DNA of 40,522 bases from a virus (taxonomy: Duplodnaviria; Heunggongvirae; Uroviricota; Caudoviricetes), in the IMG/VR virus record IMGVR_UViG_2737471847_000003, positions 1 through 40,522 of that record; one strand, given 5' to 3'. Under the pieces are notes generated by a model. The model was not told where the DNA came from and searched no databases. It saw nothing but the letters and a program-made list of their open reading frames with translations. This document shows, in pieces, positions 9,685 to 40,522 of the stretch (within the stretch, counting starts at the first letter, position 1; each line of letters opens with the position of its first letter). Position numbers and translations under genes: made by a program.

Positions 9685-10128
9685 ATGAACGAATATGTTT
9701 ATAGCGCAAGGCATAATGCTTTTTTCCCTGTGGATATGATTGATAAATATAAATCAGAGGGATGGGATTTATCAGATGCTAAGGAGGTGAATCAAAATAT
9801 TGTCAGTGAGTTTATGGCTGAACCGCCACAAGGAAAAGTCCGTATTGCGGGAGAGGATGGACTACCTGCGTGGGCAGATATTCCTCCACCTACTCATGAA
9901 GAGCTTATTGAAATTACTGAATCAGAAAGACAGCTACTAATTAACCTGGCCAACGAATACATGAACAGTAAGCAATGGCCCGGTAAAGCCGCTATTGGTC
10001 GTCTGAAAGGTGACGAACTGGCGCAATATAATTTGTGGCTGGATTATCTTGACGCACTGGAGCTGGTCGATACTTCCGGTGCGCCAGATATTGAATGGCC
10101 TACGCCTCCGGTAACTCAGGCCAGCTAA
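9685..10128 (+). CDS. Tail-fibre assembly protein, alternative copy
   Basis: 147 aa; C-terminus ...DTSGAPDIEWPTPP parallels the active copy (...DTSTAPEISWPELP); tail-to-tail 29-nt overlap with it. Confidence 0.8.
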   Translation: MNEYVYSARHNAFFPVDMIDKYKSEGWDLSDAKEVNQNIVSEFMAEPPQGKVRIAGEDGLPAWADIPPPTHEELIEITESERQLLINLANEYMNSKQWPGKAAIGRLKGDELAQYNLWLDYLDALELVDTSGAPDIEWPTPPVTQAS

Positions 10129-10495
10129 TCTCAGGAGCCGTCGAAGTGTCGACGGCTTTTACTTCTTTTTTGTAGTCCATCCAGGCAGATAGTTTTTCTT
10201 TATCTGTACTGCTGATATCACCAAGCATTAATTCCACCCGCCAGTCAGCTGTGACATTATCGGCATGAGCAAGTAACTGCATTCGCTGATTTTCAGCACG
10301 TGCGACATAATCAATCGCCGGAGATTTCAGTACCGGTAAACCATTTTCATCTGACGTGATTAATTTACCCCCTTCCTGCTGTCCGGCAATTAATTCATTG
10401 TATAAGTCTGTACTTATCTCAACAATGTCAGCAGGCATGTCGCTGTTTATACCATCAAAGAAAAAACCATTAGTCGATTTTGAGAAATAAATCAT
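10100..10495 (-). CDS. G: Tail-fibre assembly protein G, active orientation
   Basis: Start set at MIYFSK (AGGT RBS, 8 nt after H stop) rather than the ORF-track start at 10525. Confidence 0.75.
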   Translation of the reverse strand: MIYFSKSTNGFFFDGINSDMPADIVEISTDLYNELIAGQQEGGKLITSDENGLPVLKSPAIDYVARAENQRMQLLAHADNVTADWRVELMLGDISSTDKEKLSAWMDYKKEVKAVDTSTAPEISWPELPEA

Positions 10496-10503
10496 AGATA
10501 TAC

Positions 10504-11919
10504 CTATACACCGATTGCTACCCAAAAACAGGACCTTTCATGTTTGACAATTTCTCCCTGAGATATACCGCCAACAATTATATAGAACTGTGATTTGCTG
10601 ATATCAGAACAGTTCGCTATGCCCATTGCAGATATACCAGCCACCGACGTTGTATGTGGCACAGCCAACAGCGCAAGTGAACGATTTGGGAATGTTACCG
10701 GGTAAGTCACCGTATAGTTTGATGCTCCACTGACAATACCCCACTGAATAATCAGACCTGAAGGGAGTTTTTGAAAACCCGTTGATGAAAGTGAACTGGC
10801 AAACGCCGCCATATCCGGAATTTGGTTTTGCCCGCTACCTACATTCCGTTTTGCCGCTTCTCCCAAACCAAGGTATGCGAGAAGACCAGCTACATCCTTT
10901 CCACTCAAATTAGTCAGCGTATTGTCCAGCGGTTGTTTACCTGCCAGCGCATTAAGCATTGTCGTGGCAAAGTTCGGATCATTCCCCAGTGCCGCCGCCA
11001 GTTCGTTCAGTGTATCCAGTGCCGCAGGTGCAGAACCCACCATTGCTGTAATCGCTGATTTCACAAAAGCTGTAGTGGCAATCTGTGTATTGTTGACCGA
11101 CTGTGCCGCAGTAGGTGCTGTTGGCGTTCCGGTGAGTGCCGGACTCGACAGCGGTGCTTTTAGTGCCAGCGCATTGTTAATGGTGGTACTGAATTTCGGA
11201 TCATTGTTAATGGCTGCGGCTATTTCTTTCAGCGTGTCCAGCGTGGCTGGCGCACCATTAATAAGAGCCGTCAGAGCCGCCTGAACAAACGCGGTGGTCG
11301 CAATCTGCGTGGTGTTATTCCCTGCTGCTGGCGTTGGCGCTTTGGGTGTCCCGGTAAATGTCGGACTTTCTTTGGGCGCATACTGTGAATGTGGGTCCGC
11401 TGCGGCAAGGTGTTTTGCCATTTGGTCATCCACATACACCTTCAGCTCCAGTGCTTTATCATCCACATACTTGCGAGTTGCTAGTACTACAGCAGGGTCG
11501 ATTTTCAGGGTGATATTGTCCGTACTGCTGGTAATCAGCACCATGCGTACGGTCTGGGTGCGCCCGCTGCCTTCAGCCAGTTGCGGTTTATAGCTTTCCG
11601 GGCAGTTTCCCACGGCAATCAATGCCCCGGACTCATCAAACAGGCCCACTTCACGTATCCACCAACCGCCCTCGTTTTCAGGGATCACCTGTTCAGCAAT
11701 AATCTGGCTACTGTTCTGCGGGTCGATATAGAGCATATTCAACGCAGCCCGGCGTTTCTCATTTACCAGTGCCGTCTGCTTTGCGTCCGGCGTTGGTAAT
11801 GTTCCGCCGCCATCGCCTACCGCCATATGGGTAATTTTTAACGGCACACCGAGCGCGGCGGCGCTGGCAAGTTTCGCCGCGCCAATATCCGTCAGCAGGG
11901 TATAAAATTTTGTGCTCAT
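10504..11919 (-). CDS. H: Tail fibre protein H (constant N-terminus plus currently fused variable C-terminus)
   Basis: 471 aa; N-terminus MSTKF...MAVGDGGG typical of P2 gpH; internal fibre repeats; C-terminal ~120 aa lie inside the invertible segment. Confidence 0.85.
   Translation of the reverse strand: MSTKFYTLLTDIGAAKLASAAALGVPLKITHMAVGDGGGTLPTPDAKQTALVNEKRRAALNMLYIDPQNSSQIIAEQVIPENEGGWWIREVGLFDESGALIAVGNCPESYKPQLAEGSGRTQTVRMVLITSSTDNITLKIDPAVVLATRKYVDDKALELKVYVDDQMAKHLAAADPHSQYAPKESPTFTGTPKAPTPAAGNNTTQIATTAFVQAALTALINGAPATLDTLKEIAAAINNDPKFSTTINNALALKAPLSSPALTGTPTAPTAAQSVNNTQIATTAFVKSAITAMVGSAPAALDTLNELAAALGNDPNFATTMLNALAGKQPLDNTLTNLSGKDVAGLLAYLGLGEAAKRNVGSGQNQIPDMAAFASSLSSTGFQKLPSGLIIQWGIVSGASNYTVTYPVTFPNRSLALLAVPHTTSVAGISAMGIANCSDISKSQFYIIVGGISQGEIVKHERSCFWVAIGV
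10858..10883. other. hix/gix-like 26-bp crossover site (right)
   Basis: TTCTCCCAAACCAAGGTATGCGAGAA; shares the inner half-site TTCTCCCAAACC-AA with the left site in inverted orientation; 34-bp inverted-repeat arms 9290-9323 and 10838-10871 with 2 mismatches. Confidence 0.7.
10930..11367 (-). repeat. Tandem ~219-bp (73-aa) diverged repeat inside the tail-fibre gene
   Basis: Two protein units NNTTQIATTAFVQAALTALINGAPATLDTLKEIAAAINNDPKF and NNTQIATTAFVKSAITAMVGSAPAALDTLNELAAALGNDPNF. Confidence 0.7.
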
Positions 11920-36835: not shown

Positions 36836-38077
36836 ATGGCAAGACAAACCAAACCTCTATCCGTTAAAGAAATAGAATCAGCCAAACCCAAGGAGGCGGA
36901 CTACGTTCTCTATGATGGCGATGGCCTTGAGCTACTCATTAAATCCAGCGGGAGTAAAATCTGGCAGTTTCGCTACATTCGCCCTGTCACCAAGAAACGA
37001 GCAAAGAAGAGCATAGGCTCCTACCCGTCAGTTACCCTTGCCGATGCCAGAAACTACCGTGCAGAGTCCCGCTCACTACTGGCTAAACAGATCGATCCGC
37101 AGGAACATCAGCAAGAACAATTGCGCAGTTCGCTGGAAGCCAAAACCAACACTTTCCAACTCGTAGCTGAACGTTGGTGGAATGTGAAGAAAGCCAGTGT
37201 GACAGAGGACTATGCGGAAGATATCTGGCGCTCTCTTGAAAGAGACGTCTTTCCTGCGATTGGCGACGTTAGCGTTACAGATATTAAAGCTCATACACTG
37301 GTTCAGGCCGTACAACCGGTTCAGGCCAGAGGAGCACTGGAAACTGTTCGTCGCCTGTGCCAACGTATTAATGAGGTCATGATCTATGCCCAGAACACAG
37401 GGCTGATTGATGCTGTTCCCAGCGTTAATATCGGTAAAGCCTTCGAGAAGCCTCAGAAAAAGAACATGCCCAGCATTCGACCGGATCAGCTACCTCAGTT
37501 AATGCAGACGATGCGAACAGCCAGCATTAGCCTTTCCACACGCTGCCTGTTCATGTGGCAACTTCTTACTATTACCCGCCCTGCCGAAGCGGCTGAAGCT
37601 CTCTGGGAAGAGGTAGACATAGAAGCGCGAGAGTGGAAGATTCCTGCAGCACGCATGAAAATGAACCGCGACCATACTGTTCCATTGTCAGATGAAGCAA
37701 TTGCGATACTAGAGATGATGAAGCCGTTAAGTGGAAATCGAGAATTTATCTTTCCCAGCCGCATCAAGCCAAACCAGCCGATGAACAGTCAGACCGTAAA
37801 CGCATCGCTAAAACGCGCAGGTTTTGGTGGGGTGCTCGTTTCACACGGCCTGCGATCTATCGCCAGTACAGCCCTTAATGAGCAGGGATTTCCACCTGAT
37901 GTTATTGAGGCTGCACTTGCTCATGTGGATAAGAATGAGGTTCGTCGTGCGTATAACCGTAGTGATTATCTTGAGCAGCGACGGCCTATGATGCAGTGGT
38001 GGGCTGATTTTGTGATGGCTGCAGATCACGGTAGTATGATTGAAGGAGGGATAAAGGCAATGCGGTTAGTTGGATGA
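36836..38077 (+). CDS. intA: P4/CP4-57-type tyrosine integrase (IntA family) of a second ssrA-targeting island
   Basis: 413 aa; N-terminus MARQTKPLSVKEIESAKPKEADYVLYDGDGLELLIKSSGSKIWQFRY typical of P4-like integrases; sits right after an ssrA 3'-end copy. Confidence 0.85.
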   Translation: MARQTKPLSVKEIESAKPKEADYVLYDGDGLELLIKSSGSKIWQFRYIRPVTKKRAKKSIGSYPSVTLADARNYRAESRSLLAKQIDPQEHQQEQLRSSLEAKTNTFQLVAERWWNVKKASVTEDYAEDIWRSLERDVFPAIGDVSVTDIKAHTLVQAVQPVQARGALETVRRLCQRINEVMIYAQNTGLIDAVPSVNIGKAFEKPQKKNMPSIRPDQLPQLMQTMRTASISLSTRCLFMWQLLTITRPAEAAEALWEEVDIEAREWKIPAARMKMNRDHTVPLSDEAIAILEMMKPLSGNREFIFPSRIKPNQPMNSQTVNASLKRAGFGGVLVSHGLRSIASTALNEQGFPPDVIEAALAHVDKNEVRRAYNRSDYLEQRRPMMQWWADFVMAADHGSMIEGGIKAMRLVG

Positions 38078-38154: not shown

Positions 38155-38184
38155 GTTAAACCCTGCTCTTAAGCAGGGTTTTTA
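38155..38184. terminator. Bidirectional intrinsic terminator between intA and the convergent large ORF
   Basis: CCCTGCT-CTTA-AGCAGGG hairpin flanked by AAA and TTTTT. Confidence 0.7.
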
Positions 38185-38215: not shown

Positions 38216-40522
38216 CTATTTTAAATCAGCCTTTGCGGCTCGAATATCTGCGTTTTTTGCTGAGTATTCCCATTCGTCAGCGATTCTAAATAGCATTGCA
38301 GAAGTACGGACGCAGTGGGGCATTGAATTTGCCCATTCTCGGTACTGCTCAGCTAATATCCTTTCTTGGTTTCCACCTTCGTAACGCATACGAGCAAATA
38401 CCCCCCTTTTATTGTACCTACCAATTTGTATACCTTGCTCTAACTCATCAGAAGATAATATTTCAATGATGTGCCGAATTGCTTCATGTGGCCAGGAATT
38501 ATCTACTGAGCTATTAGGGGCATGTGCCAGAATTTTTCCTATTACATGATCAGTGATTTCTTGGCGATGATGCAATTTTGCTAAATGGCGTACATTCTCA
38601 CACCAATCTTCAAGTTTATCTTGATCAATTTCATTGTCTATCTGCCCTGGTAGTATTCGTAATTTTTCAAGTAATCTGTATATAGAAGTAGCTCTTTTAA
38701 CTTCCAACTCCGATGGTTCTGTTTGTTCATCTTCGTCACTACGATATACAATACATATTGCTTCTATAAAAACCTCTGGCTTTTTCATCATTAGACGATG
38801 CAGGATAAGTGGCTCATCGCTATCCGGAAAACAAGGCAAGTAGGTCATTTCTTTAAATGCCAAATCTGTTTCAGAAACATCGTTACGTTGTTTGAGTTCA
38901 TCAAAAACTTTTTTTACATAGTACGATAGCATTGTATCAAATTGGATATCCTGGCTATTTATTTCTTTAACGACTATATCTAGAAGATATAAAAGTGTTG
39001 TAGATGGAATCTCAGAAAGGCGTTGATTTGCTGATATAATAGCAGCAAGACCCCGGCCCCTTTCTATATATTTATCCATAAGAACAAATAAATCCGAAGT
39101 TTTACCCATCATTGCAATGGGTTGTTTTTGCAACCAATATTTTTCGTTGATGTTATCTTCAAACCCTTCAATAATGCTCCATATCTCTTGTGAGTCTCTT
39201 AACGATGCTAAGATTTTCCCAGCCCTATCAGGGGTAATTTTAAACTGTTTAAAATACACTTTTATTTTATTAAGCCATTCAGCACCAAAGCATTCAACAC
39301 CATATTGCATTAACAACCCACAAACTTCATCAATATTTTTTTTGTTGTTAATAAGCATTACAAACAAATCATTTAATTTTTCTTCATCCAACGAGAGTGC
39401 TGATATATGCCTTGCTGCAATAAAAACATTATTAACTTGTTGAAAAAGGTCTTTCACCCCAGACAAACCTAAAGTAAAGTATATTTCCCTAAGTTTTTCA
39501 CTTCGCATTTCTTCGACAGAAGAAAAAATTCCGCCAGCATTTTCAATTGACTCTTCAATATCAGAATCCCAATCATTGAAAATCCATAAACTGGCTCTAA
39601 CCATGTCAATTGGTTTATAATTATCAAGTATTTTCGCTATTTTTTCCATAGACTCAAATTTAAATGCCCAGTTCGCATCTGAATATTTTTTATGGCGAGA
39701 ATACTCATGACGCAAAGCCTCCCATACGATGAACTGATCCTCTTCAGTTTGTTGAGAAAGGCAAAGTTCAAGATGAGAAAGTGTTTCATCTATTGCATTC
39801 TCAGGGAATGAGCTTAAATGAGAGATTAGGATTTCCCATCTTGTTGGGAGTATACCTGCAAGTTTAATTGCTTCTTGGATAATAAAGATTTGCCCCTCCC
39901 AAACAACGCCCCACGTTAGTTTTTCTACATCTTTATCCGACTCTCTGAACTTCATTTTTTGGTTTTGATCAGAGGTATCATGGGAGCGAGGAAGGAGATT
40001 TTGTAACAAACTCCACCCAATACTAGGAACAATAGTGATAATTTTTTTTATAATTGCATTTCTAACTTTTACTGGTGCCCATGTATTAGGAGACCATGCC
40101 AGAAAAATGGTTCTTAAACTATTAAGAGGGCGATCTGAGTAAGTTCCTCCGGGATCTATTACAGCGAGTTTTGCAAGACAGATTGCAGCGCGTAATAGAT
40201 ATGTTTGTTCCCAAGCCAAGGCTTCCAATGCCCATTTTAATCCATGATAATGACTTCGAGGAGTTAACAGCCCTTTATCTTCATTGAATATTGGAGCAAT
40301 CATTTCCCCATTGCCCTTAAGCAATTGCTCAAGGGCATCAAGGAAAGGGCCAGGGGCAGCTTCTGCCAGCAGCGGAAGTTGATCTCGCAAACTAACAAAT
40401 AGTCGATGGTCGTTAGCAAGTCCCGGAATACTCTGAACTATTTTGTTAACAAAATCTTGGGGTGTCATACCAGTAACCCGGAATTCGGCCTGTTCATGTA
40501 ATATGATCTTACCCAGCAATAG
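38216..40522 (-). CDS. Large hypothetical protein, 5'-truncated by the window edge
   Basis: Open frame of at least 768 codons reaching the window end with no upstream stop (track start is a TTG); AT-rich; predicted helical; no catalytic motif recognised. Confidence 0.55.
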   Translation of the reverse strand, partial: LLLGKIILHEQAEFRVTGMTPQDFVNKIVQSIPGLANDHRLFVSLRDQLPLLAEAAPGPFLDALEQLLKGNGEMIAPIFNEDKGLLTPRSHYHGLKWALEALAWEQTYLLRAAICLAKLAVIDPGGTYSDRPLNSLRTIFLAWSPNTWAPVKVRNAIIKKIITIVPSIGWSLLQNLLPRSHDTSDQNQKMKFRESDKDVEKLTWGVVWEGQIFIIQEAIKLAGILPTRWEILISHLSSFPENAIDETLSHLELCLSQQTEEDQFIVWEALRHEYSRHKKYSDANWAFKFESMEKIAKILDNYKPIDMVRASLWIFNDWDSDIEESIENAGGIFSSVEEMRSEKLREIYFTLGLSGVKDLFQQVNNVFIAARHISALSLDEEKLNDLFVMLINNKKNIDEVCGLLMQYGVECFGAEWLNKIKVYFKQFKITPDRAGKILASLRDSQEIWSIIEGFEDNINEKYWLQKQPIAMMGKTSDLFVLMDKYIERGRGLAAIISANQRLSEIPSTTLLYLLDIVVKEINSQDIQFDTMLSYYVKKVFDELKQRNDVSETDLAFKEMTYLPCFPDSDEPLILHRLMMKKPEVFIEAICIVYRSDEDEQTEPSELEVKRATSIYRLLEKLRILPGQIDNEIDQDKLEDWCENVRHLAKLHHRQEITDHVIGKILAHAPNSSVDNSWPHEAIRHIIEILSSDELEQGIQIGRYNKRGVFARMRYEGGNQERILAEQYREWANSMPHCVRTSAMLFRIADEWEYSAKNADIRAAKADLK

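Follow-up and report, generated by a model that had tools for sequence, protein, structure and literature searches.

A gene remnant split by IS3 beside an ssrA-island integrase, and its intact, putatively Avs-like allele in Escherichia coli

The gene at the right end of the window (the whole analysed stretch of 40,522 nucleotides from a Caudoviricetes record) is represented by its 3′ part, cut off by IS3, and we consider it probable that this part is an inactive remnant, while the intact gene found in other genomes encodes an Avs-like single-chain anti-phage receptor. For the locus itself the result is corrective: the presumed truncated unknown gene appears to be a remnant killed by IS3, and no working defence gene is added at this position. 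As a feature of the window, an IS-disrupted island gene is ordinary. The intact allele matters more: about 75 complete E. coli genomes carry it, those of the O104:H4 outbreak lineage among them, and there it adjoins the validated Avs8 system.

On the minus strand, 768 sense codons run without interruption from the stop codon at 38216–38218 to the window end at 40522, and the length of this unbroken frame in DNA of 36% GC excludes a chance origin. The fragment has at least 157 homologues, with E-values down to 0. The preliminary description had reported an AT-rich open frame of at least 768 codons, converging with the integrase across a bidirectional terminator, and all of these features were confirmed. 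GC content is 0.35–0.38 over 38–40 kb, against 0.50 in the integrase and 0.53–0.59 in the prophage core. The integrase (36836–38077, plus strand; WP_000113815.1) is the P4-type tyrosine integrase of the ssrA island, with the Pfam domains Arm-DNA-bind_3, Phage_int_M, and Phage_integrase, and it lies beside ssrA at the same position in the reference genomes. It converges on the gene fragment, and the two are separated by an intrinsic-terminator hairpin at 38158–38181 (10-bp stem, T-rich tails), which was scored on both strands.

The gene proper comprises only positions 38216–40503 (minus strand), since 40504–40522 is IS3 sequence: the plus strand carries there the first 19 nt of the left terminal inverted repeat, TGATCTTACCCAGCAATAG, identical to the IS3 end in E. 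coli GE3, and the minus strand of the window accordingly starts (40522–40504) with its reverse complement, CTATTGCTGGGTAAGATCA. In GE3, the same junction runs on into the IS3 transposase, and in the reference genomes the frame ends nine codons deeper inside IS3. The GE3 element is bordered by a 3-bp target duplication, ATA; the N-terminal part of the gene is still present behind it, split again by a second IS3 near nt 196. The window stops within the inverted repeat, and the far junction of IS3 and the target duplication are known from the GE3 reference.

An uninterrupted gene of 3,747 nt, encoding WP_000871158.1 (1,248 aa), was recovered through reference genomes, namely those of E. coli 55989 and of O104:H4 strains, as the preliminary description had proposed to do by extending the sequence. 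The 2,288 gene bases of the window, which start inside codon 487 and continue through codon 1248 and the stop codon, match nt 1460–3747 of this gene with zero mismatches, which places the entry of IS3 after nt 1459 of 3747, within codon 487. The inverted repeat at the break, the 3-bp duplication, and the uninterrupted allele elsewhere were thus all found. The gene had been described as truncated by the window; its frame does reach the window end, but the real cut is genomic and due to IS3. What is retained is the 3′ 61% of the gene, i.e., the “sensor” part, a C-terminal all-alpha solenoid of a 1,248-aa nuclease–STAND-like protein, and the 750-aa remainder has a RefSeq entry as a “hypothetical protein” (WP_000188801.1). 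As a consequence of the insertion, the window holds a promoter-less 3′ fragment without the nuclease and NOD modules. The lack of any substitution relative to the intact allele indicates that the insertion is recent, so that the intact frame of the fragment is uninformative on selection.

The intact protein has an Avs-like nuclease–STAND–solenoid layout on a single chain. Its N-terminal half was represented by a structure model of residues 1–502 of a homologue with 57% identity (pLDDT 92, pTM 0.88). A Foldseek comparison, suggested in the preliminary description, placed Avs3 (8DGC) and Avs4 (8DGF) at the top of the PDB matches with probabilities of 0.99–1.0 and alignments covering both the nuclease and the NTPase, followed by SAMD9, Apaf-1, and CED-4. 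Each of the three parts expected of a STAND/Avs protein was detected: an N-terminal nuclease effector domain, a NOD module with the fold order NBD–helical domain–winged helix, and a C-terminal helical-repeat sensor. The nuclease is of the PD-(D/E)xK type, with D54, E74, and K84 invariant in the alignment; the lysine K84 lies in the helix after β3 and does not form an ExK triad, the local sequence being E74-F-G. The motif that defines STAND proteins is nevertheless lacking. None of 232 full-length members has a Walker A motif GxxxxGK[S/T] in residues 150–420, the P-loop position after β1 being occupied by A-A-[DE]-[ST]-[PA]-[DE]-E-V (family-wide acidic motif A-[DE]-[ST]-x-[DE]-E-V). Only 33 of 43 sequences carry D/E at the Walker B position. 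The family therefore combines the architecture of an Avs receptor with the loss of the nucleotide-binding motif typical of STAND.

The sensor is an alpha-solenoid of about 760 aa whose structural matches are generic HEAT/ARM solenoids only. Its most variable stretch (39203–39565, minus strand; residues ~800–920 of the full protein) has a mean top-residue frequency of 0.35–0.38, against 0.62–0.68 in the flanking conserved blocks of the 43-sequence alignment, and may represent the ligand-recognition surface. The highest conservation in the sensor is seen at residues 521–640 and 1161–1200. The latter belongs to a highly conserved C-terminal block (38243–38482, minus strand; residues ~1161–1240) with the consensus ERFNMRGVYSK...EGGxQERxLA...W...PRT, in which G1187, G1196, E1200, and R1219 are invariant, as judged from the invariant and near-invariant columns of two alignments (A1 and A2); this block possibly provides an intramolecular or autoinhibitory contact.

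The search with the 761-aa product returned 157 proteins, nearly all of 1,245–1,256 aa and none with a Pfam domain; a homologue from Klebsiella pneumoniae is 94% identical to the window fragment. With a profile of the N-terminal 490 positions, we detected 4,608 cluster representatives (clustering at 50% identity) with E <= 1e-3, and 2,456 of these reach E <= 1e-30. Relatives are encoded in at least 594 species-representative genomes from Proteobacteria, Acidobacteriota, Bacteroidota, Nitrospirae, Chloroflexota, Actinomycetes, Chlamydiae, and other phyla. The absence of a recognisable motif, noted from the sequence alone, holds at the sequence level, as Pfam, NCBIfam, and PADLOC gave zero matches for the fragment, the GE3 N-terminal pieces, and the intact protein, and a profile search against PDB sequences gave chance-level matches only (E >= 0.045); the fold, however, is recognisable. 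The family accession numbers had no match in our literature searches. This Avs-like family of thousands of sequence clusters is thus without annotation: no curated protein or defence library names it, and defence annotators based on such libraries would miss the intact gene, as the PADLOC result illustrates for the predictor check that had been recommended.

The genomic surroundings argue for a single-gene system: none of the neighbour families is conserved among 77 loci, and the commonest, a tyrosine integrase, occurs in 10 of them. The partner genes that had been supposed to lie outside the window are therefore not needed. In a set of 235 ORFs lying no more than two genes away from the target, PADLOC gave strong matches to BrxHI, DpdE, ZorD, JetD, Upx, SngC, PDC-S01, PDC-S06, PDC-S13, and PDC-S39, among others. 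AbiEi occurs in six of the target neighbourhoods and AbiEii in four, and Pfam also identifies integrases, resolvases, and HipA toxins among the neighbours. In a distant clade (~28% identity; loci L067, L070, L072, L073, L080, and L087), a divergent AbiEi/AbiEii pair is found repeatedly upstream. The PD-lambda-4 A/B genes, i.e., Avs8A and Avs8B, are divergent neighbours of the gene in E. coli 55989 and of a 78%-identical homologue; they occupy 7746–11597 and 6954–7700 in the 55989 locus and 21875–26518 in the GE3 locus. The 55989 proteins have the same accessions as those of the ECOR07 system, in which Avs8A and Avs8B sense HK97-fold capsid proteins (bioRxiv 10.1101/2025.07.02.662641). From these defence-rich neighbourhoods we infer, by “guilt by association”, an anti-phage function of the intact family.

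A relative of 1,182 aa is encoded in lambdoid prophages directly after the replication genes O and P (2134–5682 in both loci L111 and L115). It shares residues 351–1238 (winged-helix domain and solenoid) with the family at E 6.5e-198, while its N-terminal 280 aa are unrelated; this part (GGGGVHFE...DTDD...QIKH) has zero Pfam or PADLOC matches and is possibly another nuclease. A DUF6602/PD-DExK protein and PDC-M28C are encoded next to it.

It is unlikely, in our opinion, that the family is a non-immune one, serving as a mobile-element maintenance or addiction factor, a regulator, or a restriction-like enzyme acting on host or element DNA. The gene is always located within mobile islands near integrases, and some of its members appear in the sources as “XRE family transcriptional regulator” or “addiction module antitoxin”. 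However, these names are automatic, neither Pfam nor NCBIfam detects an HTH or antitoxin domain in any part of the protein, and the predicted fold is that of a nuclease, a STAND module, and a solenoid. Moreover, the hypervariable middle of the sensor and the exchange of the N-terminal module in the prophage-hotspot variant are both typical of immune receptors.

The fate of the IS3-cut allele was followed in complete E. coli genomes. At >=99% identity, the fragment is present in 188 of 5,426 genomes, always adjoining ssrA and this integrase, while a 160-bp probe spanning the insertion site is uninterrupted in only 75. Strains 13P460A and IBS28 have lost the N-terminal part together with all sequence as far as ypjA, and Avs8 is gone from many genomes with the IS3-cut fragment. 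In an O187:H52 allele, codon 336 has changed from CGA to the stop codon TGA (L011, 1669–1671), a second, independent inactivation of the gene in E. coli. In the window, the solenoid region is no longer joined to its promoter, and the IS3 transposase gene points away from the fragment; together with the further decay in the reference genomes, this suggests that the locus is most likely an inactive, recent pseudogene remnant. The proposal that it is a candidate component of a defence system thus suits the intact allele, which is defence-type island cargo near the integrase, is Avs-like, adjoins a validated Avs8, and has relatives in defence-rich loci, but not the window piece, which lacks the nuclease and NOD.

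One can suppose instead that the sensor-only fragment still functions: its 750-aa solenoid, produced through read-through or under a chance promoter, would bind the phage ligand and serve as a decoy, as a sequestering factor, or as a modulator of the neighbouring Avs8 or of an intact paralogue. About 113 genomes share an intact, identical frame, which RefSeq lists as a CDS, sensors of this type are found with other N-terminal modules, and an independent split near the same boundary exists in several Pseudomonas syringae strains. Still, the identity to the intact allele reflects a recent insertion, so the open frame gives no sign of selection; no promoter is evident, and the loss of the N-terminal half and Avs8 from many genomes resembles ongoing decay. 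We regard a functional fragment as unlikely. As to P. syringae, the homologue of B728a and other strains (P0190, P0192, P0193, P0195, and P0199) is split into products of 474 and 753 aa, and the domain boundary at which it breaks almost coincides with that of the IS3 cut in E. coli.

One of the known systems closest to the intact protein is Avs8A (PD-lambda-4 A; EcAvs8A, WP_000963924.1), which senses the major capsid protein of phages. In both proteins, an Mrr-type nuclease is followed by a NOD module and a helical sensor; their lengths are nearly equal (1,283 aa in Avs8A, 1,248 aa here), and their genes are immediate neighbours in the ancestral island. BLASTP, hhalign, and hmmsearch alike give weak matches at corresponding positions, with collinear similarity at 139–165 versus 151–176 and at 529–639 versus 558–660. 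The best hhalign match has an E-value of 5e-5 and a probability of 67% over about 105–240 columns, a probability that stayed unconvincing partly because the Avs8A profile was built from sequences of >=68% identity only; hmmsearch with the Avs8 profile gave E about 0.01, and the PADLOC PD-Lambda-4_A models do not match the family protein. Pairwise identity is about 20% over short stretches. Taken together, these sequence comparisons tentatively suggest a distant common ancestry of Avs8A and this family. There are also differences: Avs8A carries GLSGVGKT at the site of AADSPDE in this family, and Avs8 is a two-gene operon with Avs8B, whereas this family has no Avs8B-like second gene, no partner on either side being conserved in the 77 loci.

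Given this proximity, one might see the gene as an accessory of the adjacent Avs8 and not as a unit of its own, a reading for which its divergent position next to Avs8A/B and the weak collinear similarity to Avs8A could be cited. We find it very improbable, because Avs8A alone gives full defence and the transposon selection hit Avs8A only (bioRxiv 10.1101/2025.07.02.662641), the gene is present without Avs8 in more than 70 other loci, and the fragment is kept after Avs8 loss in many E. coli genomes.

Avs3 and Avs4, the receptors for terminase and portal, follow the same single-chain logic of effector, NOD, and repeat sensor, with an identity to this family of about 10%. They bind ATP, comprise 1,500–2,000 aa, and have TPR sensors, while this family has lost the P-loop and has a HEAT/ARM-like sensor. 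Lee et al. (Nature 2026, PMC13581612) mention a “KpAvs8” that naturally lacks nucleotide-binding residues, and it may belong to the same family, as K. pneumoniae possesses the close homologue of the fragment mentioned above; six family accessions and the NBD motif are absent from the portion of the supplement examined. The same authors describe the Avs7 sensor in Dsr1, a case of one sensor combined with different effector backbones. The 1,182-aa prophage relative, with the family's sensor and another N-terminus, is similar in this respect, although the Avs7/Dsr1 case concerns a different sensor family.

The analogy of Avs3, Avs4, Avs7, and Avs8 suggests that the intact receptor would wrap its solenoid around a phage protein, and this binding would release autoinhibition and lead to oligomerisation, presumably without ATP, the pseudo-NOD mediating assembly in a nucleotide-free manner. 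The clustered N-terminal nuclease domains would then cut DNA, resulting in abortive infection. In the window allele, the solenoid alone is left, separated from the promoter, nuclease, and NOD. If the intact protein is an active receptor, its acidic pseudo-P-loop offers a natural test of nucleotide-free activation of a STAND-type receptor. A bolder and rather doubtful generalisation is that the family forms a large unnamed Avs-like clade in which a NOD without nucleotide binding serves as an ATP-free immune switch, and whose sensor-only fragments persist as decoys. The clade would extend to the 2,456 clusters at 50% identity recovered at E <= 1e-30, the loss of nucleotide binding being seen in every member checked.

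Three candidates were rejected: a housekeeping or structural gene, by the patchy distribution, low GC, and mobile-island setting; an HTH/XRE regulator or antitoxin, by the absence of a detectable domain of this kind; and an obligate multi-gene system, by the zero conserved neighbours.

Most of the window is occupied by a 36.2-kb P2-like prophage (405–36585), which has integrated into the 3′ terminus of ssrA and lies between this gene and the older integrase island. It is flanked by exact 47-nt direct repeats (358–404 and 36586–36632), the second of which (plus strand) represents the prophage attR and the original ssrA end at the island border. This prophage and the island occur together in no complete E. 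coli genome, the best coverage being 71%. Its P2-like genes include those for the GPA replication protein (27436–29850), portal (22125–23174), and integrase (33579–34592). Two further pieces of cargo were observed in it. Adjoining the P2-type integrase, a minus-strand gene at 34606–36363 with a GC content of only 0.32 encodes a dCMP_cyt_deam_1 domain and matches the PADLOC dCTPase model (dCTP deaminase defence) at 2e-146. In the interval between the portal and replication genes, a low-GC (0.33–0.39) cassette at 23595–26616 encodes a 652-aa HATPase_c_3 protein (PADLOC REase_II, 9e-91) and, in convergent orientation, a C-5 cytosine methyltransferase (PF00145, 5e-57); it is probably restriction–modification-type cargo in a P2 hotspot.
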